Below, piece by piece: positions 3,375 to 27,766 of a stretch of 64,000 bases of DNA (the first letter of the stretch is position 1; every line of letters starts with the position of its first letter). This DNA is from an uncultured Clostridia bacterium (GTDB taxonomy: Bacteria; Bacillota; Limnochordia; Darwinibacteriales; DTU012). Below the pieces are notes generated by a model, which made no database searches, was not told where the DNA came from, and worked only from the letters and a program-made list of their open reading frames with translations. The DNA lies in NCBI GenBank assembly GCA_900019385.1, contig FIZJ01000011.1:4006-68005 (forward strand), written 5' to 3'. The translations under genes and the position numbers were made by a program.

Positions 3375-3404
3375 TTGCATCGAGATCCCCTCGGTTGCTA
3401 TAAT
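3375..3404 (+). promoter_or_regulatory. Sigma-70-type promoter for the skp genes
   Basis: TTGCAT, 18 nt spacer, TGcTATAAT (extended -10). It lies about 45 nt upstream of the strong SD GGGGAGGAGG and ATG 3452. Confidence 0.5.
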
Positions 3405-5971: not shown

Positions 5972-7090
5972 ATGATTCAAACCAAGTCATACCGGACCGT
6001 TGTTCTGCGCGGTTCTTCGATCTTGGATCGATACACTCTGCGGGAGTTTTTCTGGCCCTTTGTCTTTTGTGTGGTCGGGTTTACCGTTATTCTCTTAAGC
6101 GGTGTCCTGTTTGAGCTGATTGATCTGTTTTTAGTCAAACGGGTGGCTATCAAAATAGTGATCAGAATGCTGGTCTATTATATACCGGGGATTGTGGTCA
6201 TGACCCTGCCGGTGGCGGCTTTGTTTTCCACGCTGTTGAGTTTGGGCCGCATGAATGAGGACAGTGAAATGATCATCATGTGCAGCAGCGGCCTGCCGTA
6301 CTGGCGGATCATGATTCCAGTAGTGATTGCCGGGCTGATCATCAGCGGTGTTACCTATGTCTTGAATGAGGAAGTCGTGCCCTGGACGAACCACGAGTTT
6401 CAAAAACTGTTCCGGGAGCTTGTCTATCAGGAAGACGCGCCCTTGATTGAGGAAAACATCTTTTTCCTGGGCGGCGAGAACCGGTATTTCTACATCAACG
6501 AAGTGAACAAACAGCTGCGCCAGCTGAAGAACGTCCTGGTGTATGAAACGGGGCCGGATCAGTTCCCACGTATGATCACAGCCACTTCCGGCACTTACAG
6601 GGATCATCTGTGGATTTTGTACGACGGGATCGTCCAGAATTTCGATGAAGACGGTTATGTAAGTTATCAGACGCGGTTTGAGACCATGCAGATCACCACA
6701 CCCGACGCCTCTGATCTGTATTTCGGCAATCAGAAAACCAGCGACGAGATGAGCCGCAAGGAACTGAAAGAGCATATTGACCGGTTTCAGCGCAGTGGCT
6801 TGAAAGTGCTGTCGTTCGTTGTGGATTATCATTTGAAGCTGGCGCTGCCCATGGCCTCTTTCATTTTTGTGTTGTTTGCCGCGCCTTTGAGCCTGTTCAG
6901 CAAGAGCAGTAAATCATTTGGGATCGCCGTAAGCCTGATTGTGACAGTGATGTATTATGTGGCGACACCGGTTTGCCGCTCGCTGGCCATCAACGAAGTC
7001 TTCCATCCTCTGTTCGCCGCCTGGCTGACCAACGGGGTTTTCGCCATCACCGGAATTGTCCTCCTGATCCGCGCCGATCGGTTACATTGA
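5972..7090 (+). CDS. LPS export ABC permease, LptF/LptG (YjgP/YjgQ) family
   Basis: 372 aa. It starts with ILDRYTLREFFWPFVF, has three N-terminal TM segments, a periplasmic beta-jellyroll-sized insert, and three C-terminal TM segments. It sits directly upstream of lptD. Confidence 0.8.
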   Translation: MIQTKSYRTVVLRGSSILDRYTLREFFWPFVFCVVGFTVILLSGVLFELIDLFLVKRVAIKIVIRMLVYYIPGIVVMTLPVAALFSTLLSLGRMNEDSEMIIMCSSGLPYWRIMIPVVIAGLIISGVTYVLNEEVVPWTNHEFQKLFRELVYQEDAPLIEENIFFLGGENRYFYINEVNKQLRQLKNVLVYETGPDQFPRMITATSGTYRDHLWILYDGIVQNFDEDGYVSYQTRFETMQITTPDASDLYFGNQKTSDEMSRKELKEHIDRFQRSGLKVLSFVVDYHLKLALPMASFIFVLFAAPLSLFSKSSKSFGIAVSLIVTVMYYVATPVCRSLAINEVFHPLFAAWLTNGVFAITGIVLLIRADRLH

Positions 7091-7091
7091 G

Positions 7092-9284
7092 ATGAAGGTG
7101 GTCCCTTTGCATACTTACAAGAACCGAAAACCGATAGTGCTGCTGATACTGCTGGCAGCCGCGCTGACGCCGCTTTTGGCGGGCTTTCCGGTTTGTGCTG
7201 CCGATAATGATAAGATTACTATCGAGGGTACAGAATTCCTTGAGATGGATCTTGAGGCGCTGCTGTTCCGCGGGTCGGGAAATATAACCGTTAAAGGGGA
7301 AAACCTGGAACTGACAGGCGACAAACTGGTCTACGACGAGCAGAATCAGTTGTTGTTCCTGGAAGGCAATGTCACACTTTCCCAAGGTGATGCTTACATG
7401 GAAGGGGAGAGCCTGGTCTACAACATCGCCGAAGAGCGGGGAGAGATTGTCAACGGGACAAGCTATCTGATCTCGGAAAAAATCGAAGGCACGGTTTTCG
7501 TTTATGGCGAACACCTGCGGATTGATTCCGGAGACTATTTTATCGAGGACGGCAGAATATCCACCTGCGACTTGAGTGAACCACACTATCATCTGGCAGT
7601 CAAGAAAATAGACATTTATCCCGGTGAGAAAATGGTCATTCACGGTGTGCGCTTCTATGAGGGGAAGATGCCCCTGTTTTACTGGCCGTATCTCGTTATT
7701 CCGTTGGACGATCGTTATGACGAGGATTTCACTTTGCCGGAAATCGGGTACAACGCCGAAGACGGCTACTATTTCAAGCACCGGTATAAGTATCATCTGA
7801 GCCCCAATGCCCACGGTTCTCTGATCTATGAGTATTACACCCGCAAAGGCCTGGGCTTGGGAGTGGATCACAAATACGATCATGACACCCTTGGCGGCGG
7901 CGGAATCGCTTTGTATCTCCTGCCTTTCGCCGCGAGCAAATATTTTGTCGGCCAACTCCAGCACGAATACGAGGCTGAAGGGATCCGCTTCAGCACGAAC
8001 AACTCTTATACAAGGCAGTATGTGGATCAGGTGCTGGAGCAGAATATCGCCAGTTCCACCAGTGTTTCGTACCAGGCGGGAGGCACCCGTTTGACGGCAA
8101 GCTTCAACTACGGCTTGGAGCGCAAGGGTGAGGAGAGCAGCCGGACATGGAGCGCGTCGGGCAGCTGGCGTCAGCAGCTCTTGCCCAACTGGATGCTGGA
8201 TCTCAGTTCCAAGGCCGTGGCGAAAGATGAAACAACGACTTATGACCATTTGGCGGAGACAAGCTACACCTACAACAACCACCGTTTCAGCCTGGCGGTG
8301 CAGCAGAAATACAACCCGGATCTCTTGGATGAGGCTGCGGCACCAACCTGGAAAAGCCTCAACCGCCTTCCCGAAGTTACCTGGCAGTGGACGAACCCCA
8401 GCTTGCTTGGGCTGTCGTTTCCCGGCAGGTTCCAGCTCTCGGCCGGCAGATTCGAGGAGTATCCTTCGGGAGTAGCCACCTGGCGGGTGGTTCCGGCGCT
8501 GGAGCTATTCTCCCGCAGCTGGCGCTCTGATTTCGGTACCACGGTAACTTACAGCGGCAATGTGTCCAGCAGTTTCTACGGCAGCGGCCAAAGCCTGAAC
8601 GCTGCCTATGGGCGTGTCGGCATAACCCAAAAGCTTACTGATACCACCAGTGTGACGGCCAATTACTACAAGCGCCTGGTCTGGGGTGAGACTCCCTTCC
8701 GCTTTGACCGTCAGACTGCCCAGGATCTGCTGCGGGGCACCCTTAGGTATACTAAGCGTCCGTGGACAGTTACAGTCAACACAGGGTACGATTTCTTAAA
8801 GGACAGGTATGAGACGCTGCGGACACAGGTTAACTTCAGCAGCGCCACCGAGCCGGTCACCGCCGGGATCACGCTGAACTACGACATTAACAACCGGCGC
8901 TTCGGCGACTTGAGCGCGAACATCAACTACAAGCCCAAAAGCGACTGGGTGTTCAGCCTGGGGGTTGTTTACAACATCCAAAACAAGCAGTGGAAGCGGA
9001 TCAACGGCAAAATCCAGTTTGATTTGGCTGAGGATGTCAGCTTGAGCTACGATTTGAACTACGAGCCGACAAAGGCATCCAATAAGCTCAAACAGGGCAA
9101 GCTGACTGTCACCTTTGATCTGCACTGCCGTAAGCTGGAAATGAGCTATGATCAGGTGCGGAAGGAGTTCCGGGTCCAGTACTCCATCAATGCCTTCCCC
9201 AAGCTGCCCATCGGGTACAGCACTCAGGAAGGGATCCGGTTTTTCAAGATTGAAGACCTGAAAGACTTGATAGGAAACGAGTAA
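7092..9284 (+). CDS. lptD: LPS-assembly outer membrane protein LptD (OstA family)
   Basis: Signal peptide and an OstA-like N-domain (ITIEG..LE..GNVTL). It has the STCDL..PHYHL..KKIDIYPG...MPLFYWPYLVIPLD motif block typical of LptD, then a long Tyr/Asn-rich barrel. Confidence 0.75.
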   Translation: MKVVPLHTYKNRKPIVLLILLAAALTPLLAGFPVCAADNDKITIEGTEFLEMDLEALLFRGSGNITVKGENLELTGDKLVYDEQNQLLFLEGNVTLSQGDAYMEGESLVYNIAEERGEIVNGTSYLISEKIEGTVFVYGEHLRIDSGDYFIEDGRISTCDLSEPHYHLAVKKIDIYPGEKMVIHGVRFYEGKMPLFYWPYLVIPLDDRYDEDFTLPEIGYNAEDGYYFKHRYKYHLSPNAHGSLIYEYYTRKGLGLGVDHKYDHDTLGGGGIALYLLPFAASKYFVGQLQHEYEAEGIRFSTNNSYTRQYVDQVLEQNIASSTSVSYQAGGTRLTASFNYGLERKGEESSRTWSASGSWRQQLLPNWMLDLSSKAVAKDETTTYDHLAETSYTYNNHRFSLAVQQKYNPDLLDEAAAPTWKSLNRLPEVTWQWTNPSLLGLSFPGRFQLSAGRFEEYPSGVATWRVVPALELFSRSWRSDFGTTVTYSGNVSSSFYGSGQSLNAAYGRVGITQKLTDTTSVTANYYKRLVWGETPFRFDRQTAQDLLRGTLRYTKRPWTVTVNTGYDFLKDRYETLRTQVNFSSATEPVTAGITLNYDINNRRFGDLSANINYKPKSDWVFSLGVVYNIQNKQWKRINGKIQFDLAEDVSLSYDLNYEPTKASNKLKQGKLTVTFDLHCRKLEMSYDQVRKEFRVQYSINAFPKLPIGYSTQEGIRFFKIEDLKDLIGNE

Positions 9285-9776: not shown

Positions 9777-10386
9777 TTTGGTGATAGCAATCATTTTGCT
9801 GGCTGCTTTCACATTTTGCGCGGCGGCTCAGGAAGCGGATGTCGAGCAGCCTGCCGCGGCGAAACCAGCTGAGCAAAGCGACAGAGTCATGATTGAAACC
9901 GTGGACGTACCGTTGGAATTCACCGGCAGCTTCAACTGGGAAACGGGCGAATTCACCGCTGATGTGTCTGAATACGAGGGAGCCTATATCCAGATCACAT
10001 TCAAGGATGTGGTAGTTATCGGCCAAGCTGTGGTGCACCGCCAAAAAGAGAACTATCTGCTTGTCACCGGGAATGTGCGGGTGGAACAAAAAGACTTTGT
10101 TCTCATCTGTGATCAAGTAGAATATTATACCGAACTGGAAAAACTGATCGGCACCGGCAATGTGAAGGTCAAGACAGATGACATCGATGCCTCGTCAGAT
10201 GAAATGATCTATCTCCAGAAAGAAGAGCAGGTCGACTTCATCGGGAATGTGGCCGCGGAAACCAAGGATGCCACAATCTACGGGGAGCATCTGATCGTGC
10301 TCAGGCCGACAAACAGCATTCGGTTCAACGGCTGGTTCAGAGTTGAAACAAAAGAGAGCGAGCCGGCAGCACAAACAGGCGAATAG
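9763..10386 (+). CDS. lptA: LptA (OstA-like periplasmic LPS bridge protein)
   Basis: Signal peptide and repeated OstA motif (LLVTGNVRVEQKDFVLICDQVEYY....L.GTGNVKV). It overlaps the lptC end by 14 nt. Confidence 0.65.
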   Translation: MKRTSLVIAIILLAAFTFCAAAQEADVEQPAAAKPAEQSDRVMIETVDVPLEFTGSFNWETGEFTADVSEYEGAYIQITFKDVVVIGQAVVHRQKENYLLVTGNVRVEQKDFVLICDQVEYYTELEKLIGTGNVKVKTDDIDASSDEMIYLQKEEQVDFIGNVAAETKDATIYGEHLIVLRPTNSIRFNGWFRVETKESEPAAQTGE

Positions 10387-10419
10387 GCATAAGCTGGCGC
10401 TTTTAGCGGCTATTTCCGG

Positions 10420-10448
10420 TTAAACCCTCTCCAGCGCTGTGTTATAAT
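10420..10448 (+). promoter_or_regulatory. Candidate sigma-70 promoter upstream of the giant membrane protein
   Basis: TTAAAC, 17 nt spacer, TGtTATAAT (extended -10), 25 nt upstream of SD GGGGAGGG. Confidence 0.4.
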
Positions 10449-10478
10449 GAAAACACCAGGTGGGGAGGGTTTTTGCTT

Positions 10479-12626
10479 ATGTTTAGGTTCTTTCGCGACG
10501 GGCTTTACCGCGATTATATAATATTAATCCTGGTCACCATAATCGCCGGGGCCGCAGTGTCGTCTGGAGTGGCCTGGGCTGTTGATGTCTATTTTGGCGA
10601 CACGATCCAGGAAATGATCGGCGACAACGGCGAATTCGACTTGATCCTCCACATCCGGGAAGCTTCGGAGGAAGCCGCTGTCCGGGAACTGGAACGGATC
10701 GCCCAACAGCAGTACCCCGGCGCAGTTATCTCCAAAACCATATCCCTGGCCGGACAGGTCAATTATCTTTTCGGGTTTCCAAAGGAAGCCAAGACTGCGG
10801 AAACCTTCTCGCGCCTGCCCTCGATTTTCAACGCTGTACCCGGTTTGAACAGCTATACCGTGATCGTGGAGCCAAGTGTGCTGGTGAGAGGAGTCCATCC
10901 CAGCATCAGCGACACACTCCAGCAGCGCTTCAATCAGATCGGCGGGGTTAGTTTTGCTTTCAGGGACGGCAAAAACATGCTGATCGTCCTTGAAGGGGCG
11001 GAGCATTCCAAGCGAGTGATGAACGAAGTTAAGCAGATTCTCAAGGACTACCAGGTGCTTGAGATCCGTTTCCCCATGGGATTCGACGTGGATGTCCAGT
11101 CCACCGGCGACGCTGTGATTCAACTACTGCGCAAGGAATATCCAGGAGCGAAACTAGCCAACGTGTCTTCCACCGAGTACGGCGAAGAGCTGGATGCGCT
11201 GATGAAAACCCTGGTGGAAATGCGGCATTTTCTATTAAGCTATGCGTCCAAGGTCACGATCAAGCTTGCACCCGGATCCACAGTGGTGATGGGCGAGCAG
11301 ATTGTGGTCCAGGGGTTGAGCCAACAGGTTCCCGCTTCCGGTGAGGAAGCCGCTTCTGATCACGTGGTGATTGAAATCTTGGAAGTAAACGGCGATCAAG
11401 CCCAAGGCATGATTGTCTCCGGCTCGGCCGCCGCCGACGGCGGTGTGCTCACTCAGCCGGGATACGAGTATTTGAGCGAAAGCAAAATTGGCAAGCCGGT
11501 AGGAGAAGTCCGCATCGAAAATGAACGCTACCGGCTGAACTATGCAATCGAAGAAAGCCTGCGCCTGCTGCGGGAGCTTGACGGCCTGTCTGTTGAGGCA
11601 GCTCTTGCCGTGGAGCGGGCCGACAAGGTTTTGACCACTTTCCAGGAGGCCCTGATGCAGCTGGAGGTCCTGCAGGTGCAGATGCAGCAGTTGAACAAAG
11701 GCCTGGCCGAGAAGGGAGCCCAGTCCACAAGTGAACAGCTGATTATCTCCCTGTTTATCAACGGGCTTTTGAAAAGTATCGCCAAAAGCGGTTCAGAAAC
11801 GGCGGAAGAATTTGATCTCGATCAGCTGGAAAACCTGGACATCGCTTCGATGCGTTCAAGCCTTGAAAGCATTGCCGAGCAGATCGGCAGCATTCAGGAG
11901 ATTGATGTCCAGGCGATCATCGATCAAGTCAGCGACATCCGTGACAGCCTGCCTGATCTGGATGACGAGGAGATCGGTAAATCCGTGCGTTTGGTGGACA
12001 ACTATATCGCCGGCCAGGTCATTCCCGGCGAGCGGATTCAGATTCTGGTGGAGAAGGGCCCGGTCGATACCGAGGCGGTGGAGCCCTTAATCCGAAGCAG
12101 GCTGCAGAATCAATATCTAAATGTCTATTCCATCGCCGCCGGCACTGTCAATCCCGACACCCGCACCGAGGTGTTCCGGATCCTAAAAGAGGTGCGGGCC
12201 ACCATAGCCGGGATCCTGTCCATCGTGCTGGTGGGAGTGTTCTTAATCCTCGATCATGCCACCATTTTCAGCACACTGAAATGGTTCCGGGCGAATCAGA
12301 AGCAGCCCAGGCATGGACTGGCGAAGCTCATGAATCCGGTTGCCCTTTTCAGCGCCGCGGTGGGGGCGGCGGTTTTGGCCGCGACTTACTGGCTGAGCCG
12401 GGCGGCGGTCCCATATGTCTCCATGGCCACGGTGGCTGTGATCGGCATGGGGCTTGGGGCGGCAGTCGGCATCTTTTCCGAGAAATTCAGCCCGGTGCGG
12501 GCCGATGAAATCATGGCCGGCCTGGCGCTTGGCTTGAACAACGCCCAGATCATGCACGAAATCGTGATCCCTGACGGCAGGCCGGGGCTGCTGCAGCTGA
12601 TGAACCGGGCCAAACAGAAGTTTTAG
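10479..12626 (+). CDS. Large membrane protein of unknown function (1 N-terminal TM, ~550-aa extracytoplasmic region with coiled coil, 3 C-terminal TM)
   Basis: Long ORF with good SD spacing to ATG 10479 (TTG 10473 is also possible). Hydrophobic segments are IILILVTIIAGAAVSSGVAWAV, IAGILSIVLVGVFLILDHATIF, VALFSAAVGAAVLAATYWL and MATVAVIGMGLGAAVGIF. The heptad-like middle reads LQEALMQLEVLQVQMQQLNKGL. I could not place it in a family by eye. Confidence 0.6.
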   Translation: MFRFFRDGLYRDYIILILVTIIAGAAVSSGVAWAVDVYFGDTIQEMIGDNGEFDLILHIREASEEAAVRELERIAQQQYPGAVISKTISLAGQVNYLFGFPKEAKTAETFSRLPSIFNAVPGLNSYTVIVEPSVLVRGVHPSISDTLQQRFNQIGGVSFAFRDGKNMLIVLEGAEHSKRVMNEVKQILKDYQVLEIRFPMGFDVDVQSTGDAVIQLLRKEYPGAKLANVSSTEYGEELDALMKTLVEMRHFLLSYASKVTIKLAPGSTVVMGEQIVVQGLSQQVPASGEEAASDHVVIEILEVNGDQAQGMIVSGSAAADGGVLTQPGYEYLSESKIGKPVGEVRIENERYRLNYAIEESLRLLRELDGLSVEAALAVERADKVLTTFQEALMQLEVLQVQMQQLNKGLAEKGAQSTSEQLIISLFINGLLKSIAKSGSETAEEFDLDQLENLDIASMRSSLESIAEQIGSIQEIDVQAIIDQVSDIRDSLPDLDDEEIGKSVRLVDNYIAGQVIPGERIQILVEKGPVDTEAVEPLIRSRLQNQYLNVYSIAAGTVNPDTRTEVFRILKEVRATIAGILSIVLVGVFLILDHATIFSTLKWFRANQKQPRHGLAKLMNPVALFSAAVGAAVLAATYWLSRAAVPYVSMATVAVIGMGLGAAVGIFSEKFSPVRADEIMAGLALGLNNAQIMHEIVIPDGRPGLLQLMNRAKQKF

Positions 12627-12640
12627 AGGGGGAGATAGAG

Positions 12641-13369
12641 TTGCTGAAAATCAGGGGCTTACGGAAGCAATACGGCAAACACATTGCTGTCGACGGTGTG
12701 GATCTGGACGTGCGGCGGGGCGAAACCGTGGTGATCATGGGCCCCAGCGGCTGCGGCAAATCGACCATGATCCGCTGTGTCAACCGTTTGACAGAACCGG
12801 ATGCAGGTGAAATCCTTGTGGACGGCAAGTCAATCCTGAGCCTGGATGATCAGAGCTTGAGAGAGTTCCGCCGGACAGTAGGTTTTGTGTTTCAGCAGTT
12901 CAACCTGATCGCCCGTCTTAATGTCTTGGACAATGTCATGTTCCACCTGGTGCTGGCGGGTGTCCCTCGTGAGCAGGCGGAAGCTCGAGCCCGCAAGGCC
13001 TTGGCCAAAGTGGGGCTTGAAAGCTCGGAACACAAACATCCGGCTAACTTGAGCGGCGGCGAACAGCAGCGGGTGGGGATTGCCCGGGCGCTTGCCTCCA
13101 ACCCTCAGCTGATGCTTTGGGATGAGCCTACCGCCTCGCTGGACCCGATCCTGATCGGAGAGGTCCTGGACGTGATGGAGGAGCTTGTGCGCACAACCAA
13201 CACCACATCCATCATTGTCACCCATGAAGTCGGTTTCGCTTTGAAGGTCGCCGACCGGATTATCCTGATGGACAAAGGAAAAGTGGTGGAAGAAGGATCT
13301 CCCCGGGCCATTTTTGCCGATCCCCAGTCCGAAGTCGGTAAAAAATACCAGCGCTTGATTGCCAGTTAA
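12641..13369 (+). CDS. ABC transporter ATP-binding protein, polar-amino-acid (GlnQ/HisP)-like NBD
   Basis: Walker A GPSGCGKST, signature LSGGEQQRVGIARAL, Walker B LMLWDEPTASLDP and H-loop VTHEVGFA. The IRCVNRL.EP..G and DEPT.ALDP style is that of PAAT-type NBDs. Confidence 0.85.
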   Translation: MLKIRGLRKQYGKHIAVDGVDLDVRRGETVVIMGPSGCGKSTMIRCVNRLTEPDAGEILVDGKSILSLDDQSLREFRRTVGFVFQQFNLIARLNVLDNVMFHLVLAGVPREQAEARARKALAKVGLESSEHKHPANLSGGEQQRVGIARALASNPQLMLWDEPTASLDPILIGEVLDVMEELVRTTNTTSIIVTHEVGFALKVADRIILMDKGKVVEEGSPRAIFADPQSEVGKKYQRLIAS

Positions 13370-13463
13370 ACCACAGCAGGAAAAAACCTTTTTTTGCCGA
13401 ATTAGTAACTTCGCCGAGAGGTATCTCGGCTTATTTTCTAAATGGCAAGAAGGTGAATGCCTG

Positions 13464-13907
13464 GTGGACATAGACCAAATACTGGCGCTGCTGCCCCACC
13501 GTTACCCGTTCCTGATGGTGGACAAGGTTGTTGAGGTGGAAGCAGGGAAAAGGTTGGTGGCGGTCAAGAACGTCACCATCAACGAGCCCCATTTTCAAGG
13601 CCACTACCCCCGCTTTCCCGTCATGCCCGGAGTGCTGATACTAGAGGCAATGGCGCAGGCGGGCGGCTTGGCGGCGGCAAGCAGCCAACAGACAGGCGAT
13701 CCCGATGTGATTCCGCTGCTGGCTGCTGTGGACAAGGCCAAGTTCCGCAAAATGGTGCGCCCCGGCGATCAGCTGGTGATTGAAGTTGATGTTCTGAAAG
13801 TCGGGAGCAGGTTGGCAAAAGTTGCCGCCAAGGCGCTGGTGGAAGGAGAGCTGGCGGCCGAAAGCGAACTCACTTTTGTGCTGTCGAAGAGAGGAGCCAG
13901 TCTATAG
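13464..13907 (+). CDS. fabZ: 3-hydroxyacyl-ACP dehydratase FabZ
   Basis: LLPHRYPFLMVDKV...NEPHFQGHYP..PVMPGVLILEAMAQ is the canonical FabZ motif set. GTG 13464 has SD GAAGGTGA 8 nt upstream. The 13359 start would add a non-homologous extension. Confidence 0.9.
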   Translation: MDIDQILALLPHRYPFLMVDKVVEVEAGKRLVAVKNVTINEPHFQGHYPRFPVMPGVLILEAMAQAGGLAAASSQQTGDPDVIPLLAAVDKAKFRKMVRPGDQLVIEVDVLKVGSRLAKVAAKALVEGELAAESELTFVLSKRGASL

Positions 13908-13909
13908 CC

Positions 13910-15034
13910 ATGGCACAGAAAAGGATTATGGTCATCAGCAGCGACACCTCCAGCGATCTTTACGGGGCTCGGCTGACGAAAGCATTGAAGTCAATCATTC
14001 CTGATGTGCCGCTGTTTGGCGTCGGTGGATTGATGATGGAAGAAAGCGGTGTCCGCCTGCTGTATAATCTTTCTGAGCTGGAAAACCTGGGCGGGTTCGA
14101 GGCCCTGAAGACACCTCACGTGGTGAAGCGGTTGGTCCAGCGGATTGCGGGATCCATGGACAAGTTCAGGCCGGAACTGGTGGTGCAGATCGGGATGCCG
14201 GTCTTCAGCCTCAAATTGATCGAACTGGCCAAGGCCAAGGGGCTGCCGGTGGTCTATTACAATTCCCCTTTGAATTGGGGGGCTGAACCAGTCAAGCTGT
14301 CCCGCTTGGCCCAGGTTGTGGACAAGGTGATTGCCGTCAGCCGCTACGAAGCCCGGATCTGCGAAAGCCACGGGATCAATGTGGAATTTGCCGGGCACCC
14401 ATTGGTGGATGTGGCCGCTGATGCGGACTTGGCCCTCCGCGGCGGGTTGGATCTGGCCGAAGGCATGCCGGTCGCGGTTCTGCTTCCAGGCTGCCGCGAA
14501 GCGGAAGTGAAAATGTATCTCCCCACATTACTCAAGGCAGTCAAGCGAATCAATATGGAGTGCAGGCTGCAGACAGTGGTCGCCGTTCCCAAAATGATCC
14601 GGCAGGAATGCTGCGGAGCGATGATTGAAAAAAGCGGCCTGGAGAATGTAAAGGTCACCGATGACATTCCCGGGATTCTATCCGCGGCGGATGTCGCAGT
14701 GGTCACCAGCGGTATGGACAGCATCCTGGCGGCGGCAGTCCGCGTCCCGGCGGCGGCAGTGCACAGGGAGGCCACCACAGCCTATTTTGTGGACAAAATG
14801 CTGCTGCGCAGATCGCATTTTGCCGTGATCAACTTTTTGATGCAGGAGGAAATCCTGCCGGAGCTGGTCCAAACTGAATTTACCGAAACAAAGGTGGCGG
14901 AAGCCGTACTCAGGCTGCTGAATGATTCCCAAGCGCGGAGCGAGTACTTCCACAGGCTGGAACGCCTGCCTGAGGAATTGGGAGCCCCGGGAGCCACCGA
15001 CAGGGCGGCTCGGATTATCACCGGCATGCTGTAG
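13910..15034 (+). CDS. lpxB: Lipid-A-disaccharide synthase LpxB
   Basis: 374 aa. It has N-terminal I.V.SSDTSSDLYGA.L (LpxB GE.SGD..GA.L block), GT-B length, and sits next to fabZ. Confidence 0.8.
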   Translation: MAQKRIMVISSDTSSDLYGARLTKALKSIIPDVPLFGVGGLMMEESGVRLLYNLSELENLGGFEALKTPHVVKRLVQRIAGSMDKFRPELVVQIGMPVFSLKLIELAKAKGLPVVYYNSPLNWGAEPVKLSRLAQVVDKVIAVSRYEARICESHGINVEFAGHPLVDVAADADLALRGGLDLAEGMPVAVLLPGCREAEVKMYLPTLLKAVKRINMECRLQTVVAVPKMIRQECCGAMIEKSGLENVKVTDDIPGILSAADVAVVTSGMDSILAAAVRVPAAAVHREATTAYFVDKMLLRRSHFAVINFLMQEEILPELVQTEFTETKVAEAVLRLLNDSQARSEYFHRLERLPEELGAPGATDRAARIITGML

Positions 15035-15780: not shown

Positions 15781-15814
15781 CCCCGCCGGCTGGTTCAAAA
15801 AGAGGTGAGCTTTG

Positions 15815-16960
15815 ATGTATGGTTTTACCTTAATCTTTATTCTGGCTTTCATAGGAGGCGTCATCGCCTATATCGGCGACAAGATCGGCATGAAGGTCGG
15901 CCGTAAAAGGCTCACTCTCTTTGGGCTGCGCCCAAAATACACGGGGATTGTTATCACAATCGTCACAGGCATTTTCATTTCTCTCGCCTCGATCATCATT
16001 CTGGCCATCGCCTCCGACGATGTCCGCACAGCTTTGTTCCGAATGAAAGAGATTCAGGAAACTCTTGCAGTGAACCAACGGCAGTTGGAGCAGAGTATTA
16101 CCGCCATGGCCGAGATGCGGGATGATTTGGACAAGCTGATCGCCGAGCGGAATTCAGCATCCGCCGAGCTGTTAGAGACCCAGTCTCAATTGGATCAGGT
16201 AAGAACTCAGTACCAGGAGTTGGAGCAGAAGAAGGTGGAGCTGGAAACCGCCATCAAGGAAGCGGAAACGCAAATCGAGATGCTGCGGGAGTTTAATCAG
16301 ATCGCTGTTGGCTTCGCTGAATGGATCCAGTACGGCGACATGATTTTTCATGCTGACCAGATTGTTCATGCCGCAGTGGTTGAATCCAGCCCCGATATCA
16401 ATCAGATCTATGCCCAACTTGACTCCATCCTCGACGAGGCGGATGCGAAAGCCTACGCGTTCGGGGCACGGACAGAAGACTCTGAATCGGCGATCCTGCT
16501 CAATCCAGACCGTAAAGATTTGGCTGCCAGCATGATCCATCAGGGACAGGGCTTGTTTGTCGTACGCGTGTTGTCTGCGGCCAACACTGTCGTGGGGCAG
16601 CCGGTCGTCGGTGAACTGCAGATTATCCCCAACACCATCATTTTCCAAGACGGGGCGGTGCTCAGTGAAATCACCGTGGATCTCAACCGGGCTGCTGATG
16701 TAGTCAATGTGGGCCAGAAGATTGCCTATCTTTTGAACCAAGCCAGCGCGCTGGCAGTGATGAGAGGCGCCCTCACCTCCGACGACGGAGGGGCGGTGGA
16801 AGTGAAGCTCGGCGAGATCAGCAATTGCATCGACCGGATCAGAGAACTGGCCGAGATGGAGGACAAGCCTCAGCAGGTAAGAATTCAGGCCAAAGCCATT
16901 GGAGACACGTGGGCTGTTGACGGGCCTGTCAACATCAGGCTGGAAATTGTCCACGAATGA
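15815..16960 (+). CDS. DUF3084-family membrane/coiled-coil protein
   Basis: N-terminus FIGGVIAYIGDKIGMKVGRKRLTLFGLRPKYT matches the recalled DUF3084 signature. It has two TM segments, then a coiled coil (residues ~90-160) and a globular C-terminal domain. Confidence 0.6.
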   Translation: MYGFTLIFILAFIGGVIAYIGDKIGMKVGRKRLTLFGLRPKYTGIVITIVTGIFISLASIIILAIASDDVRTALFRMKEIQETLAVNQRQLEQSITAMAEMRDDLDKLIAERNSASAELLETQSQLDQVRTQYQELEQKKVELETAIKEAETQIEMLREFNQIAVGFAEWIQYGDMIFHADQIVHAAVVESSPDINQIYAQLDSILDEADAKAYAFGARTEDSESAILLNPDRKDLAASMIHQGQGLFVVRVLSAANTVVGQPVVGELQIIPNTIIFQDGAVLSEITVDLNRAADVVNVGQKIAYLLNQASALAVMRGALTSDDGGAVEVKLGEISNCIDRIRELAEMEDKPQQVRIQAKAIGDTWAVDGPVNIRLEIVHE

Positions 16961-17018: not shown

Positions 17019-17027
17019 TGGTATAAT
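17019..17027 (+). promoter_or_regulatory. Extended -10 element (TGgTATAAT) in the long AT-rich region upstream of the OmpM-like gene
   Basis: TGGTATAAT is read directly. No good -35 is present. Use of this element would give a ~300-nt leader. Confidence 0.3.
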
Positions 17028-22795: not shown

Positions 22796-22883
22796 AGCTC
22801 GGTGTTTGTGCAGGATAATCAAATTGTGAAGACGAAGAAATAGTTATGATCTTTGCAGAATCTACAGCCGGGGAGGTAGTTCA

Positions 22884-25800
22884 ATGAATGGTACTAGGAT
22901 AATCCTATTCACATTCATAATCTGTGCTGTTCTTGCCCAAACAGTATCAGCCGGCAATTACATACTGGATGTCGGTGATGTTCTGGAAATAACGGTCTGG
23001 GGGCACCCCGAACTGATGACCACTGTCCAAGTGCGCCCTGATGGATATATTACCTTTCCTTTGGTGGGAGATCAGCTGGCAGAAGGCAAGACTGCCAGCC
23101 AACTGGCGGAAGAGATACAGCGGCAGCTGTCTGTTTATGTTGTCGCTCCCAGTGTGACTGTGATCGTTGTCCAGTTCCGTACCATCCGGGTACAGGTCTT
23201 GGGTGAAGTCCGCAACCCCGGCTATTTTAGATTAAGCGCGGAAGACAGACTGCTGGACGCCATCGGCCTTGCCGGCGGGCCCACACCTGAGGCCAACCTG
23301 GCCGAAGTTGCCCTGACAAGGCTTGTCAGCGGAAATACAGAACTGTTAAAGTTGAATGTGGCCCGTTACATAGCGGAAGGCATTATTGAGCACAACCCGC
23401 TGCTGCGCGACGGTGATGTGATTTATCTGCCGCCTTCCGGCACCGCTTTGGTTCTGGGTGCTGTTTCCATGCCGGGCAGCTACAAACTGGTTCCAGACAT
23501 GGATATTCTGGACTTGTTGGCTGCAGGCGGCGGCCCGCTGCCTTCGGCCGACCTGTCCCAGGCAGTGCTGACCCGCAAGATAGGTGAATCATACACCGAC
23601 TTGATGCTCGACATTTATGCATTAATGCAGTCTGGTAAAGGCAAAGTGCGGGTGCACCCCGATGATGTGCTGTTCATCCCGGAGAAACAGACTGCGGTCC
23701 TTTTTGGCGAGGTTGCCGCTCCCGGCAGCTACGCCGTTGAACCTGACATGACATTGGCGGAACTGATCAGTGCCGCCGGTGGTTTGACAAAATCGGGAGA
23801 TCCTACCCAAATCCGGATTGTCCGGGAAACTGACGGTGACCGCCAATCCCTGACGGTGGATCTCAGCGACACGCTTACGGGCAAATCAGGGCTCAATCCA
23901 TTGGTGGTGGGCGGAGATATCATCTTTGTGCCAGAAATCATGAATACAGTGTTGGTCCTTGGTGAAGTGCGGCAGCCAGGCGCTTTCACCCTGAAAGAAC
24001 AGATGGGGATTCTTGATCTGATAGCCTTGGCAGGCAGTACTACGGCCAACGCAGCGTTGGATCGGGTCACTCTGACCCGGCAGATCGGCGACGAGGTGCT
24101 GGTTGAGGAAATCAATCTGGCGCAACTGCAGGGGACGGGGACCGGAAGGCATATTGAGCTGCTGCCGGGCGATGTGATCTTTGTCCCCGAAGGTGCGCCG
24201 CAGGCTTTGGTTTTGGGCAGAGTGGCCAAGCCGGGGAGCTACCGGGTGAGTGAAAGTATGCAGCTCTTAGAACTTCTGGCTGCGGCCGGAGGGCCGCTGG
24301 AAAGCGCCGGGGACGAAGTGTTGCTCACCCGCGGAGGTCAAACAATGGAAATCAATCTTGGCGCGTTAACCAGGCTGGGCATCGGTAATCAAAAAATTCT
24401 ACCTGGCGATGTGATCTATGTCATAGAAGGCAGGCATCAGGTGCTGGTTCTGGGAGAAGTCCGCAATCCAGGTTACCATAGATTGGAGTTCGGCGATCGG
24501 GTGCTTGACGGAATAGCCAAGGCCGGAGGGCTTTTGGAGACTGCGGCGGCGGACCTGGTGAGTGTCACCAGGCAAACCGAAGACACTGCTGAGGTGTTTT
24601 CCGTCAATTTGGAGCTTCTGGAGCAGAACCGGTTCCTCGACAGCAACTTCCTGCTGGAGGGCGGCGACGTGATTGTTGTTCCTGAGGCCAAACGGGATGT
24701 CTTGGTCCTTGGTGAAGTGGCTCGGCCCGGTGCCTACACGCTCCGTAAAGAACAGCGCCTGTTGGATGTCATTGCTCAATCAGGCGGCCTGACCAACACC
24801 GCCGCAGCCAACGCGGTGCAGATAACCAGGGTTGAGGCTGACGGCAGGCAGCATACAGCAGCCTACGACCTTGATGCCGTAATCAAAGGCGCCGGTGCAG
24901 ACAATCCCTTGATCAAACCTGGAGACATCGTTTATGTACCTGAACGGAAAACGTCAGTGCTTGTCTTCGGGGAGGTCGCCGCGCCCGGGTACTACACAGT
25001 CACGGATACGACAACGCTGCTTGATGTGATCGGCCGGGCCTCAGGCTTGACGGACCATGCTGACGCCAAGTCTGTCAGCTTCACACGTGTAGTGGACGGG
25101 CAGACTGTGATCGAGACGATTGACCTGGAACGGATAATGGCCACCGGCGAAGGCAACGTCCGCCTGTACGGCGGGGAAATGATTCTGGTTCCCGAACTGG
25201 ACTTGGAGATCTCCATCATCGGCGAGGTGAGATCTCCCGGCCGTTACCGGATTCGCCCCGGCGAGCGGCTGCTTGAAGCCTTGGCGAAAGCGGGAGGCTT
25301 GACGGACGATGCCGATCCTTGGCTGACGCTGACCCGTTGGACTGATGACGAACAAATGGTGCTGACCATAAATTACCGGGATCTGGTTCAATCCAATACG
25401 CCGGAGCTGAATCTGACGGTAGCCGGCGGGGATATCATCCATGTTCCCACTATGAACCGGCGGATTCTGGTGTTCGGCGAAGTGGCCCGGCCCGGCGCAT
25501 ACTTGGTGGACGAGTTCACAACGCTTTTGGATGTGATCGCTCTTGCCGGCGGCCCTACAGCCAGTGCCAAGCTGGATGAAGTGATGGTGGCGGCAGGAAC
25601 ATCTGCCGATTCAATCAAATACGTGGATCTTAACGCGGTGATCGACAAGGAGCAGCCAAATCCTGTGCTGCTGGGTGGGGAAGTGATCCATATTCCTGAG
25701 TCACGGCAGATCCTCGTCATGGGTGAGGTAGCCCGCCCAGGCGCGTTCAACCTTCCTGCCGGCGGCCGGATCCTCGATCTGCTGGCTCTGGCCGGCGGTT

Positions 25801-26321
25801 TGAGGAGCAGTTACGCCGATCAAGAGATTATTGTCACCCGGCAGGGACTGGACGGCGATCAGGTATGGATTACAGATTACCGTTCATTGATCAATAACCC
25901 TAATGAGCATAATCTGCTTCTGGCAGGCGGGGACGTTGTCTTTGTGCCGGAATACAGCCGCCAGATTGTGGTCTTGGGTGAGGTCAATAGGCCTGGTGCG
26001 TACCAAATCCATCAAGGAGCCCGGCTGCTTGACGCCATCGCCATGGCGGGCGGGCCGACAGACAGAGCTGAGCTTGGAGCGGTTGGGATCTACCGCGGCG
26101 GCGATATGCGGGATCCTGCAGAGTTTGCCGTGGGGCGGGATCGGATCCTCTTCCAGGGTGACGCGGAAGAGAACCCAGAGATTCGCGGTGGAGATGTGAT
26201 CTACGTTCCCGAGACCAGCAAACCGGATTGGAACAAAATCTTCGGTGTCCTAAGCGGTGTGAACACCTTCAGGCAGATACTTGACTGGGTCATCGACTTA
26301 TTCCCCGGAGGTGAGCGGTAG
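22884..26321 (+). CDS. Wza-like outer-membrane polysaccharide export (OPX) protein with 12 SLBB repeats
   Basis: Signal peptide. The Poly_export motif is Y.LDVGDVLEITVWGHPEL...VRPDGYITFPLVGD..AEGKT..QL. It is followed by 12 units, each carrying [VIL]LG.V..PG.[YF] ... GGDVI.VPE. Confidence 0.85.
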   Translation: MNGTRIILFTFIICAVLAQTVSAGNYILDVGDVLEITVWGHPELMTTVQVRPDGYITFPLVGDQLAEGKTASQLAEEIQRQLSVYVVAPSVTVIVVQFRTIRVQVLGEVRNPGYFRLSAEDRLLDAIGLAGGPTPEANLAEVALTRLVSGNTELLKLNVARYIAEGIIEHNPLLRDGDVIYLPPSGTALVLGAVSMPGSYKLVPDMDILDLLAAGGGPLPSADLSQAVLTRKIGESYTDLMLDIYALMQSGKGKVRVHPDDVLFIPEKQTAVLFGEVAAPGSYAVEPDMTLAELISAAGGLTKSGDPTQIRIVRETDGDRQSLTVDLSDTLTGKSGLNPLVVGGDIIFVPEIMNTVLVLGEVRQPGAFTLKEQMGILDLIALAGSTTANAALDRVTLTRQIGDEVLVEEINLAQLQGTGTGRHIELLPGDVIFVPEGAPQALVLGRVAKPGSYRVSESMQLLELLAAAGGPLESAGDEVLLTRGGQTMEINLGALTRLGIGNQKILPGDVIYVIEGRHQVLVLGEVRNPGYHRLEFGDRVLDGIAKAGGLLETAAADLVSVTRQTEDTAEVFSVNLELLEQNRFLDSNFLLEGGDVIVVPEAKRDVLVLGEVARPGAYTLRKEQRLLDVIAQSGGLTNTAAANAVQITRVEADGRQHTAAYDLDAVIKGAGADNPLIKPGDIVYVPERKTSVLVFGEVAAPGYYTVTDTTTLLDVIGRASGLTDHADAKSVSFTRVVDGQTVIETIDLERIMATGEGNVRLYGGEMILVPELDLEISIIGEVRSPGRYRIRPGERLLEALAKAGGLTDDADPWLTLTRWTDDEQMVLTINYRDLVQSNTPELNLTVAGGDIIHVPTMNRRILVFGEVARPGAYLVDEFTTLLDVIALAGGPTASAKLDEVMVAAGTSADSIKYVDLNAVIDKEQPNPVLLGGEVIHIPESRQILVMGEVARPGAFNLPAGGRILDLLALAGGLRSSYADQEIIVTRQGLDGDQVWITDYRSLINNPNEHNLLLAGGDVVFVPEYSRQIVVLGEVNRPGAYQIHQGARLLDAIAMAGGPTDRAELGAVGIYRGGDMRDPAEFAVGRDRILFQGDAEENPEIRGGDVIYVPETSKPDWNKIFGVLSGVNTFRQILDWVIDLFPGGER
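23181..26214 (+). repeat. Tandem array of 12 SLBB-like coding repeats (~85-90 codons each)
   Basis: The twelve core motifs are VLGEVRNPGYF, VLGAVSMPGSY, LFGEVAAPGSY, VLGEVRQPGAF, VLGRVAKPGSY, VLGEVRNPGYH, VLGEVARPGAY, VFGEVAAPGYY, IIGEVRSPGRY, VFGEVARPGAY, VMGEVARPGAF and VLGEVNRPGAY. Confidence 0.8.
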
Positions 26322-27766
26322 TGAACATGGAAGAAATGGACTTGCTTGAACTGTGGCAGATCTTGATGAAGCGCAAGCTTCATATCCTCCTGTGCCTGGT
26401 TCTGGCAGTCGCGGCAGCCTTGGCCGCAAGCATCTACACTGAGCCGGTGTATCAAGCGACGACAACCATGATGTTCAAGAATGATCAGTCAACGGCTCTG
26501 GCCGCTCTCAATCCATTGAGCTCACTGACGGGATCGTCTGTCAATGTGATGCTGCAAAACTATATTTACATGCTTAAAAGCCGGACGATACTGACCAAGG
26601 TCATGACCGAACTGGGGTGGGAGGAAATAACCAGCGAAGAGCTTCGGCAAATAGAGGGAGCCCTAACCGTGCAGCAGGTCACCGGTACCGAGATTCTGGA
26701 GATAAGTTTCGAGTCGAACGACAGGGAACTCGCCACCAATTTTGTCAACACCCTCAGCCGGGAGTTTGTCGACTGGATAAGGGATGAAAACAGGTCGGAT
26801 TTGCGAACTACCGGCGAGTACCTTCTGGAACAGATAGAGATTGTGGCCGCCCAACTGAAGGATGCGGAAGAACAGCTGACACAGTTTCGGGAAACAGAAC
26901 GGATGATCCAGCCCATACAGGATTCGTCCATGATGGTTAAACACTATATGGAGTGGGACAACCAGCTGGCTTTGACCAAGATCGCCAAAATCGAAGTTGA
27001 ACAGCGCCTGCGGCAGATTCAAGAGAAGCTGGCCGCCCAGGACGAGGTCATCATATCAGCGACTGCGATCCAGATCAACCCGCTGGTTCAGGCATACCAG
27101 CAGCGGTTGGCGGATCTGGAGATATCCTTGTCCGGCGCGCTTCAGCTGTATACAGACCGCCATCCAGAAGTCTTGAGCCTGCAGGCGGAAATTGAGGAGA
27201 CCCGTGCCAAGCTGGCGGGAGAAGTGGAGCGGATTACAGCCACCGAAACCATGTCCATCAATCCGATTCACAGCGAATTGTTCAGGCAGCTGACAGCCGC
27301 CCAGGTGGAGTTGGTGGCCTTGAACGCGAGGGAACAGGCGATCAATCAGCTCCGGGACGAGTTGGGCAAGGAGTATGCCCACATTCCGCAGAAAGAATTG
27401 GAACTGATGCGTTTGATGCGCATGGTTTCCCTCCATGAGGATATCTATGTGATGCTCATGACCCGCTATGAAGAGATCCGCATCAATGAGCAGATGCATT
27501 CCGGTAACCTGCAGATTGTCGATGAGGCCTCGATTCCGGAAAAGCCGATCAAACCCCGGACTAAGCTCAATATCGCTATTGGCGGTGTCCTCGGGCTGTT
27601 TCTCGGTGTCGGTTTGGCGTTTCTTTTGGAGTTTCTGGACAACACGATCAATACCAAGGAGGATGTGGAAAAGGTCCTGGCACTGCCAGTCATCGGACAG
27701 ATTCCAGAGATCAACAATCATCGTTCCTTTGGGAATGGACGGTTCAAACACAATGTAAGGATGTGA
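26321..27766 (+). CDS. Wzz/GumC-type polysaccharide co-polymerase (PCP) with long coiled-coil periplasmic domain
   Basis: N-terminus has LLELWQILMKRK plus a TM and the Y.A...M motif of the Wzz domain. A helical periplasmic region of ~350 aa follows. The second TM is IAIGGVLGLFLGVGLAFLLEFLD. GTG 26321 overlaps the wza stop (ATG 26327 is an alternative). Confidence 0.8.
   Translation: MNMEEMDLLELWQILMKRKLHILLCLVLAVAAALAASIYTEPVYQATTTMMFKNDQSTALAALNPLSSLTGSSVNVMLQNYIYMLKSRTILTKVMTELGWEEITSEELRQIEGALTVQQVTGTEILEISFESNDRELATNFVNTLSREFVDWIRDENRSDLRTTGEYLLEQIEIVAAQLKDAEEQLTQFRETERMIQPIQDSSMMVKHYMEWDNQLALTKIAKIEVEQRLRQIQEKLAAQDEVIISATAIQINPLVQAYQQRLADLEISLSGALQLYTDRHPEVLSLQAEIEETRAKLAGEVERITATETMSINPIHSELFRQLTAAQVELVALNAREQAINQLRDELGKEYAHIPQKELELMRLMRMVSLHEDIYVMLMTRYEEIRINEQMHSGNLQIVDEASIPEKPIKPRTKLNIAIGGVLGLFLGVGLAFLLEFLDNTINTKEDVEKVLALPVIGQIPEINNHRSFGNGRFKHNVRM

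Follow-up and report, generated by a model that had tools for sequence, protein, structure and literature searches.

Why would an ATP-binding cassette (ABC) ATPase and a large membrane protein be encoded together among genes for lipopolysaccharide (LPS) transport and lipid A synthesis? The question is raised by contig FIZJ01000011.1 of an uncultured Clostridia bacterium (GTDB lineage Limnochordia). We analyzed a stretch of 64,000 nucleotides (nt) of this contig, which we will call the window; all coordinates below are in window numbering. The two genes lie between lptA and fabZ, and we will call the large membrane protein of the pair BIG. The BIG-ATPase pair is a real, conserved, and unannotated feature, and it very probably functions in LPS or outer-membrane lipid biogenesis. 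Our leading explanation, to which we give a probability of roughly 45%, is that the pair is an undescribed ATP-driven ABC machine that would work towards the periplasm, as a mechanotransducer or extractor, in the biogenesis of LPS or outer-membrane lipids. A preliminary description, made from the sequence of the window, had already proposed an undescribed, ATP-driven envelope system that is tied to LPS genes. That proposal has held up: BIG matches no family in Pfam or NCBIfam, and lpxC, fabZ, or lpxB accompanies the pair in 66 of the 66 loci where we counted linkage.

The two genes, with their ribosome-binding sites (RBSs), are:

10462..10469, + strand: RBS GGGGAGGG of the BIG gene, read from the sequence, with 9-nt spacing to ATG 10479

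10479..12626, + strand: BIG gene, 715 amino acids plus stop, predicted membrane subunit of the ABC system (from the list of open reading frames and an identical database protein)

12627..12634, + strand: RBS AGGGGGAG of the ATPase gene, read from the sequence

12641..13369, + strand: ABC ATPase of the polar-amino-acid-importer class, 242 amino acids (from Pfam, NCBIfam, and identity to E. coli ATPases)

The mechanical open reading frame (ORF) for BIG has 717 codons (TTG 10473 to 12626, + strand). We use the 715-residue form because the RBS GGGGAGGG suits ATG 10479, not TTG 10473, and because a database protein of 715 amino acids is 100% identical to BIG. The ATPase begins at TTG 12641, which leaves a gap of 14 nt after the stop codon of BIG (ending at 12626), just as the preliminary description had it.

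Do the two proteins work together? We collected 82 related loci from species-representative genomes and assemblies, and 79 of them had enough sequence for adjacency to be counted. The ATPase is the next gene after BIG in all 79, with a median gap of ~16 nt and several overlaps. Also, six representative proteins of 930-996 amino acids (P0215, P0217, P0219, P0237, P0245, and P0254) are natural fusions of BIG, a linker, and an ATPase domain with a Walker A motif. One of these (P0237, at 10001-12961 of locus L085) is encoded between an LptA-like gene and fabZ, which is the position of the split pair. Conservation of the pairing in relatives, which had been proposed as a check, is borne out by these loci and by the fusions. 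It is highly likely that BIG and the ATPase form one ABC complex, and this complex would most likely contain two BIG and two GlnQ-like ATPase chains (with BIG as a homodimer). The ATPase is predicted to be catalytically intact: it has the full set of Walker A motif, Q-loop, signature, Walker B with its catalytic glutamate, D-loop, and H-switch, and conservation of these motifs is 95% or more among 81 orthologous ATPases that are partners of BIG relatives.

The argument for a role in LPS or outer-membrane lipid biogenesis is based on gene neighborhoods, which we counted over 66 loci, with "downstream" meaning within 3.5 kilobases (kb). Every one of the 66 has lpxC, fabZ, or lpxB downstream of the pair, and the gene right after the ATPase is lpxC (36 loci), fabZ (21 loci), or lpxB (9 loci). 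On the other side, lptF/G, lptD, lptC, or lptA is upstream in 59 of the 66 loci, with lptA immediately upstream in most loci. For example, in the cultured bacterium Halonatronum saccharophilum, the order is LptF, LptG, LptD-like, LptC, LptA-like, BIG, ATPase, LpxC, FabZ, LpxA, LpxI, LpxB, MsbA, LpxK, KdsB. The common order is also found in a 41%-identical relative and in relatives of ~820 amino acids at 30% identity. In the window, the genes encode BamA, Skp, LptF/G, an LptD-like protein, LptC, LptA, the pair, FabZ, LpxB, LptB, a DUF3084 protein, and OmpM with an SLH domain. The preliminary description had placed the pair inside an LPS transport and lipid A cluster, and its neighbors LptF/G, LptC, LptA, FabZ, LpxB, and LptB agree with this.

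Which microbes have the pair? The closest relatives of BIG are from Limnochordia and from unclassified Bacillota metagenome-assembled genomes (MAGs). On the Halanaerobiales side, named carriers include Halothermothrix orenii, a Halocella sp., Natronospora, and Halanaerobiaceae MAGs; other carriers are Limnochordia, Limnochordaceae, Hydrogenispora, and Candidatus Darwinibacter. An exhaustive search with a hidden Markov model, covering 1.84 billion representative proteins, gave 240 matches, and a search for homologs with a broad profile was saturated with close relatives and yielded no new taxa. Judging from these searches, the BIG family appears to be small and closed. Every locus that we recovered is an lpx/lpt (diderm) locus, which agrees with the linkage to diderms that had been listed for checking. 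Two lineages of diderm Firmicutes that diverged deeply, the Limnochordia and the Halanaerobiales, both have the pair fixed within their lpt-lpx cluster. As an aside, carriers labeled as Natronincola sp., a Chitinophagales bacterium, and Syntrophomonadaceae (L029, L079, and P0110) show the Bacillota-type order lpt-BIG-ATPase-lpx, and these bins are probably mislabeled or contaminated.

The neighborhoods also bring up a second explanation, in which the pair would sense or regulate the synthesis of lipid A: its periplasmic domain would report the status of LPS or the outer membrane, and the ATPase cycle would control flux through LpxC or FabZ. In E. coli, the analogous system is the control of LpxC by YejM, LapB, and FtsH. 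Having lpxC directly after the ATPase in 36 of 66 loci, and then fabZ and lpxA, suits this idea, and the linkage of lpxC and fabZ has been stressed as a sign that the balance of LPS and phospholipids is controlled in diderm Firmicutes (PMC5007114). These are more distant relatives, in which lpxC, lpxA, and lpxI come directly after the ATPase (the window was compared to L001, L036-L084, and L095). The window's clade, however, keeps the pair even though lpxC is out of the cluster: lpxC, lpxA, and lpxI are not in the 64-kb window, where the order is ATPase-fabZ-lpxB-lptB (13370-15034), and the early lipid A genes of this clade must be located elsewhere or lost. Neither BIG nor the ATPase has a regulatory or protease-adaptor domain that Pfam or NCBIfam detects, and we know of no ABC ATPase that serves as a signaling output towards LpxC. 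We consider a lipid A sensor quite unlikely.

What kind of ABC system is this? The full BIG protein matches no Pfam or NCBIfam family at E of 0.01 or better, including YhgE/Pip and sporulation proteins; with BIG as a single query, no sequence in PDB was matched. The check for a known family (YhgE/Pip, FtsX/MacB, or a sporulation protein) that accompanied the preliminary description thus came back empty for Pfam and NCBIfam. The ends of BIG, which include its transmembrane (TM) helices, have these features:

10479..10514, + strand: N-terminal cytoplasmic motif, residues 1-12, with the consensus M-L-x-F-F-R-D-G-F-Y-K-D

10500..10589, + strand: TM helix 1, residues ~8-37, from hydropathy (AlphaFold2 helix 2-40)

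12159..12488, + strand: TM helices 2-4, residues ~561-670, from hydropathy and AlphaFold2, with an invariant D592 in TM2

12477..12596, + strand: predicted EAA coupling loop, as in type I ABC importers, at residues 667-706, from hhalign, sub-threshold Pfam matches, and a profile search of PDB

Hydropathy gives an N-terminal TM at residues ~8-37 and a cluster of C-terminal TMs at ~568-601, 614-640, and 642-670 (1+3), and the AlphaFold2 model of the full chain (built from 20 sequences) has helices at 2-40, 561-605, 620-639, and 649-665. Together these predict four TM helices and a large periplasmic domain inserted after TM1 and ahead of TM2, with both ends of the protein on the cytoplasmic side. 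The preliminary description, of a protein of ~715 amino acids with 1+3 topology and a large extracytoplasmic region, was accurate on each of these points: ~520 residues are periplasmic. The N-terminal motif reads M-F-R-F-F-R-D-G-L-Y-R-D in the window's BIG, and M1, F5, D7, G8, and D12 are invariant in the 20 sequences of the homolog alignment that we used for conservation. In the loop between TM2 and TM3, which is ~20 residues long and poorly conserved, a 5-residue helix (613-617) is predicted.

The ATPase had been described as being of the polar-amino-acid-importer type, and it is. It is 47% identical to GlnQ of E. coli, 44% to HisP, and 41% to ArtP, versus 34-39% for FtsE, LolD, and the ATPase domain of MacB, and 32% for the window's own LptB. 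The alignment with GlnQ scores 218 bits, as compared to 140 for MacB, 131 for FtsE, and 122 for LolD. Among NCBIfam models, GlnQ/TcyN come first (255 bits, below the equivalog cut-offs), while FtsE scores 185 bits and LolD 177.

The C-terminus of BIG fits this class of ATPase. The final 45 residues are among the most conserved in the protein, with the pattern E-x-MAGQALGLSNVQIMREIVIP-xx-RPGL in the 20 homologs. We used hhalign to compare a C-terminal profile of 226 sequences to 8 permeases from E. coli (MetI, GlnP, PotB, PotC, HisQ, HisM, ArtQ, and ArtM), which gave a probability of 96.2% (E = 2.1e-9) over MetI residues 109-148. When the family's profile was compared to PDB sequences, PotC was at the top (E = 0.77), and TM2-TM4 and the loop were aligned to PotC residues 61-181. 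BPD_transp_1 (PF00528) gave sub-threshold matches in C-terminal fragments from 5 of 10 homologs (E = 9e-4 to 0.4), and each of these matches covered positions ~13-113 of the 184 in the profile, which is the first half up to the EAA loop; the best fragment reached 19.4 bits, which is below Pfam's cut-off of 26.4. In one relative from the Halanaerobiales group (P0304), there is a precomputed match to PF00528, and distant members of the family, including fusion proteins, have the canonical VEAARAMG or VEAARAFG. Judged by these three independent tests, which agree, the C-terminus of BIG is a genuine EAA loop. The preliminary description had called the ATPase the wrong class for the MacB, LolCE, and FtsX families. 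We disagree, because BIG itself carries the docking element for precisely this class.

Is the system, then, an importer? In this explanation, the pair would be a true type I importer with a novel extracytoplasmic receptor fused to it; the receptor would bind a solute (an envelope precursor or a recycling product), and the dimer of 4-TM subunits would be the pore. The GlnQ-class ATPase and the EAA loop are just what an importer would have, and in the polar-amino-acid importers of Firmicutes (GlnPQ-type), binding domains are known to be fused N-terminally to the permease. However, none of the 228 unfused members has the last two core helices that should come after the EAA loop. We measured tail lengths in 234 members of the family (these 228 and the 6 fusions): in 184, the chain ends 10-14 residues beyond the EAA loop's RPG, a further 44 unfused members have tails that reach ~67 residues at most, and only the six fusions continue much further, into the ATPase domain. 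BIG itself terminates 9 residues past the loop. Three TMs precede the EAA loop and none follow it, and no member has room for two further type I core helices. Because the unfused proteins stop so soon after the EAA loop, BIG appears to lack the last two core helices of a permease. Nor did we find, in the window, a split permease that would supply those helices or a canonical EAA permease, and neither the window's ORFs nor the gene tables for related loci include a gene for a solute-binding protein. The preliminary description was right that no canonical permease or binding protein is nearby, but it overlooked the EAA loop at the end of BIG. Against an importer, too, Pfam and Foldseek gave no solute-binding protein family or fold for the periplasmic region, and the pair is strictly embedded among lpt and lpx genes, not metabolic genes. 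A true importer seems very unlikely. On the sequence evidence, the system is more easily seen as descended from a polar-amino-acid-type importer that was rebuilt to a 4-TM architecture than as a member of type VII.

The periplasmic region of BIG (residues 45-560) was modeled with AlphaFold2 from 76 sequences, with a mean predicted local distance difference test score (pLDDT) of 87.7 and a predicted template modeling score (pTM) of 0.62. Its parts are:

10617..10640, + strand: juxtamembrane motif IG-[ED]-x-G-[EQ]-[YF]-D on the periplasmic side, residues 47-54, where periplasmic conservation is highest

10635..11243, + strand: alpha/beta region of repeated ferredoxin-like beta-alpha-beta modules, residues 53-255 (AlphaFold2)

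11250..11519, + strand: small beta-barrel domain, residues 258-347 (AlphaFold2 strands)

11523..12014, + strand: helical hairpin or bundle, with the outgoing helix at 349-411 and segmented return helices at 417-510 (AlphaFold2)

12033..12152, + strand: membrane-proximal beta-alpha-beta-beta module before TM2, residues 519-558 (AlphaFold2)

In the model, a first beta-alpha-beta-beta module (residues 53-99) comes directly after TM1. The alpha/beta region has local Foldseek matches to ACT-like and RRM-like structures (probability 0.8-0.97, with E of 1e-3 or worse). The beta-barrel has a local match to domain III of eIF2-gamma (TM-score of ~0.53 for the target), and this segment is skipped in the members of 600-650 amino acids (P0179, P0185, and P0191), which are of the short, high-GC Limnochordales type. 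The outgoing helix of the hairpin has 63 residues, or ~95 Å at 1.5 Å per residue. It contains LQEALMQLEVLQVQMQQLNKGL, the segment that the preliminary description had quoted as part of a long heptad or coiled-coil stretch. In the Hydrogenispora-type relatives of ~820 amino acids, the hairpin is ~100 residues longer.

When the periplasmic model was compared to PDB with Foldseek, just one match had E of 0.001 or below: the eukaryotic SFPQ-NONO complex (E = 9.2e-4, query TM-score 0.15). This match is at chance level and is not meaningful; all that is in common is tandem alpha/beta modules and a coiled coil. The full BIG model had no match at E ≤ 0.001. Other matches, to AcrB, MmpL, and Wzc, were local and of low probability, and no adaptor, MCE, or beta-jellyroll protein was among the matches.

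The matches to Wzc chains relate to another explanation, which is that BIG is a scaffold like the polysaccharide co-polymerases Wzz and Wzc, and organizes the assembly of O-antigen or LPS without transporting anything. The gross architecture is indeed alike (TMs that flank an alpha/beta base, a long helical hairpin, and a P-loop ATPase as the partner), and a Wzy_C gene is directly upstream in the Hydrogenispora-type loci. But Foldseek's probabilities for Wzc are only 0.06-0.20, BIG matches neither Wzz (PF02706) nor GNVR in Pfam, and hhalign gives a probability of 0.4% against the window's Wzz. The partner is an ABC ATPase, docked via an EAA loop, and not a BY-kinase. A co-polymerase-like scaffold is most improbable.

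How might an ABC machine of this kind work? The most conserved periplasmic residues are those next to the membrane, namely IGEYGEYD (47-54) and NPD-R-E (558-564). G48 is invariant, and G51 and D54 are nearly so, across Limnochordia and Halanaerobiales. Extractors of lipids and lipoproteins, such as LptB2FG and LolCDE, are understood to engage their membrane-embedded cargo at the membrane interface. In the pair, closure of the ATPase dimer, driven by ATP, would reach the periplasmic domains by way of the EAA helices and the bundle of TMs. This would be mechanotransmission as in MacB, LolCDE, and FtsEX (PMC5985334), with no solute moved through the membrane. The target would be a lipidic component of the envelope at the outer face of the inner membrane, which might be LPS, a lipid A intermediate, or a phospholipid. 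The machine would extract the lipid or hand it towards the peptidoglycan or the outer membrane, along or beside the hairpin.

A regulator like FtsEX would use the same machinery without moving any lipid. It would switch a periplasmic or outer-membrane partner on or off (for example, a peptidoglycan hydrolase, the assembly of the LptC-LptA-LptD bridge, or the tether OmpM), and docking would take place at the coiled-coil arm. The topology and the motor speak for such a regulator as much as for an extractor, and FtsEX acts via coiled-coil contacts and moves no substrate (PMC5985334). The length of the hairpin differs between clades, as expected of a spacer or docking arm, and lptA is immediately 5' of the pair in most loci. 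Yet beside the pair there is no conserved candidate for the partner's gene except for the lpt and lpx genes, and the gene tables of related loci contain no hydrolase or LytM/CHAP-type gene. Conservation peaks at the membrane interface (47-54 and 559-564), not in the arm, which suits membrane-embedded cargo better. We view an FtsEX-like regulator as unlikely, and the lipid-directed ABC machine is our preferred explanation.

Several points weigh against our preferred explanation. The function was assigned from gene neighborhood alone. The homology to permeases is significant solely across the 40-residue EAA region, and the TM helices align weakly. The model of full-length BIG is moderate only (pLDDT 71.5, pTM 0.41). 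Foldseek retrieved no structural relative of the periplasmic region from PDB, and in particular no MacB, LolC, or FtsX, so the analogy to mechanotransmission rests on topology. We can only infer that the modules after TM1 and before TM2 pair with each other, as in the Porter subdomain of MacB: a mean-field analysis of coevolution between the modules that flank the insert (257 sequences, with an effective number of 149) gave no enrichment for contact, as inter-segment pairs were 50% of the top 40, versus a background of 54%. Finally, absence from the Negativicutes means that the family was not detected there, by a genome scan with two peptide patterns (one of which was IG-[ED]-x-G-[EQ]-[YF]-D) and with sparse taxonomic labels, among which no match bore the name of a Negativicutes member.

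A bolder version of the preferred explanation is that the pair represents a new ABC architecture, with a type I importer motor and EAA loop on a 4-TM, MacB-like mechanotransducer, and that it is the missing ATP-driven pathway for lipid homeostasis in the Halanaerobiales and in most Limnochordia, which are without MlaEFD. A phospholipid or an LPS-related lipid would be extracted at the inner membrane and passed along a helical arm of 10-17 nm towards the outer membrane, or in reverse. The pair would be an ancestral component of the Firmicute outer membrane that the Negativicutes have replaced or lost. We propose a role in lipid homeostasis because the distribution of the family is roughly complementary to that reported for MlaEFD. 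We regard this version as speculative and doubtful. If true, an importer-type motor and EAA loop would drive a non-channel, four-helix membrane module, which would blur the distinction between type I and type VII.

For the questions of how early bacteria built an outer membrane, and how it was lost, diderm Firmicutes serve as the reference group, and lipid trafficking to the outer membrane is an open problem in the field. The place of the pair in the lpt-lpx cluster is as firmly fixed as that of known LPS genes, and this in two lineages whose split lies near the base of the Firmicutes, so an essential step in handling LPS or outer-membrane lipids in these bacteria may have gone unrecognized. 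The cultured carriers (Halothermothrix orenii, Halonatronum saccharophilum, and Halocella) are available for study, and the single-chain fusions are ready targets for structure determination.

Is the pair its own transcription unit? Two sites on either side of it are relevant:

10440..10448, + strand: putative extended -10 element TGTTATAAT, 30 nt 5' of the start codon of BIG

13413..13440, + strand: terminator-like hairpin GCCGAGA-GGTA-TCTCGGC followed by TTATTTTCT, in the gap between the ATPase and fabZ

The preliminary description had given the pair an extended -10 promoter of its own, and this seems plausible: the pattern TGNTATAAT occurs 3 times in the 64-kb window, versus 0.47 expected by chance, and each of the three sites is on the + strand, in a gap between genes of the outer-membrane cluster (3396-3404, 10440-10448, and 17019-17027). 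They precede skp/ompH, the ABC pair, and ompM, respectively. This suggests that the cluster is transcribed from several extended -10 promoters. A sigma-70 scan that requires a -35 box made no call at the 10440-10448 promoter. The hairpin has an RNA folding z-score of -3.6, and the two genes may form a bicistronic unit of their own. The evidence is no more than suggestive, since the region as a whole has no excess of terminator-like sites (6 found versus 7.8 expected). The mechanical ORF of fabZ (13359-13907, + strand, with TTG 13359) overlaps the stop codon of the ATPase. The true start of fabZ is most likely GTG 13464, because the match to the FabZ model begins at residue 36 and because an RBS precedes GTG 13464. 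That start leaves a gap of 94 nt between the ATPase and fabZ, which holds the hairpin.

Other genes of the window have features of their own. There is a single lptF/G-type gene (5972-7090, + strand), as compared to two or three in some relatives (L043, L062, and L095); the LPS extractor may be a homodimer here, or a second lptF/G gene may lie elsewhere. The LptD-like protein of 730 amino acids (7092-9284, + strand) matches OstA/LptD_N at residues ~63-276 only, and its C-terminal two thirds have no family match. The DUF3084 protein (15812-16960, + strand), which has an N-terminal TM and a long coiled coil, follows lptB both here and in most related loci. A Wza-type polysaccharide export protein of 1163 amino acids (22830-26318, + strand) has ~12 SLBB repeats, which is unusually many, and is followed by a Wzz/GNVR co-polymerase (26315-27763, + strand). 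Directly 5' of bamA is a partial ORF of at least 450 codons (2-1351, + strand) with no Pfam match. In Negativicutes, tamB is found near the mla operon in the same outer-membrane gene cluster (PMC10665443), and the partial ORF could be the C-terminus of a divergent TamB.

How does the pair compare to known systems? We found no description of it in the literature, and an analysis of envelope clusters of diderm Firmicutes lists COG0816, DUF3084, and COG0750 as unassigned conserved genes, but not this pair (PMC5007114). When the BIG family was compared to other families with hhalign, the probability was 9.7% for LolC/LolE/FtsX/MacB and 2% or less for MacA, MlaD, MlaE, MlaC, E. coli LptC, Wzz, DUF3084, and the window's LptA, LptC, and LptF/G. 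With probabilities of 10% or less, we rejected membership in the LolC/E, FtsX, MacB, MacA, Mla, Lpt, Wzz, and DUF3084 families.

A substitute for the lipoprotein (Lol) system, which the preliminary description had considered, is unlikely, because LolA and LolCDE have been reported in Halanaerobiales (PMC5007114), which carry the BIG-ATPase pair as well. As for the adaptors of the HlyD/MacA class, BIG has no Pfam match, the hhalign probability against MacA is 0.2%, and no adaptor was among the top Foldseek matches. Like LptB2FGC, the pair is an ABC machine encoded beside lptC and lptA in the same cluster, and it is proposed to act (on the BIG side) at the outer face of the inner membrane. Unlike LptB2FGC, BIG has no beta-jellyroll, its hhalign probability against LptF/G is 2%, and LptB and LptF/G are separately present in the window.

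The Mla systems (MlaFEDB or MlaEFD) are also ABC systems encoded in outer-membrane biogenesis clusters, and in diderm Firmicutes one component of MlaEFD spans the periplasm (PMC10665443). Negativicutes and a few Limnochordia are reported to have MlaEFD, and Halanaerobiales to lack it (PMC10665443), and the distribution of the BIG family is roughly the mirror image. Unlike Mla, BIG has no MCE domain (PF02470) and no similarity to MlaE (PF02405) or MlaD, and its ATPase is of another class. Searches with phmmer for homologs of E. coli MlaD, MlaE, and MlaC found none in the window or in 90 loci, and hhalign probabilities were below 1%. Functional equivalence of the pair to Mla is purely hypothetical.

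The type I importers (GlnPQ, HisQMP, and ArtPQM, and also MetNI and PotABC) share with the pair an EAA loop that is homologous at the profile level and, for GlnQ, HisP, and ArtP, an ATPase that is 41-47% identical. TM2-TM4 and the EAA loop of BIG can be weakly aligned to PotC 61-181 and to positions ~13-113 of BPD_transp_1. Unlike these importers, BIG has an extra N-terminal TM and a periplasmic insert of 520 residues and ends after the EAA loop, without the last two core helices. Also, the pair has no binding protein, and it is in an LPS cluster instead of a nutrient-uptake operon.

The type VII systems (MacB, LolCDE, FtsEX, and YbbAP) resemble the pair in having 4 TMs, cytoplasmic termini, a large periplasmic domain between TM1 and TM2 that is flanked by beta-alpha-beta modules, an ATPase that is either separate or fused, an envelope context, and probably no transmembrane route for a substrate. 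In MacB, the Porter subdomain is built of two beta-alpha-beta motifs that flank an insert, and a "minor coupling helix" comes after TM4 (PMC5985334). BIG has a C-terminal helix at this position, which could contact its ATPase. The preliminary description had likened the pair to type VII while seeing no FtsX-family motifs. The lack of motifs was confirmed, with no match in Pfam or NCBIfam and the low hhalign probability given above. The likeness stands for the gross topology, which is MacB-like, and not for the sequence: BIG has no match to FtsX (PF02687) or MacB_PCD at the level of sequences or profiles, and the partner ATPase is of the GlnQ/HisP class, not the LolD/FtsE/MacB clade. The coupling element that is conserved in BIG is an EAA loop C-terminal to TM4 rather than a helix that links TM2 to TM3, and BIG's insert (a beta-barrel and a ~95 Å hairpin) is unrelated to the Sabre domain. 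Overall, the pair is best classed as a hybrid architecture that neither type I nor type VII covers, and it would work most like type VII.

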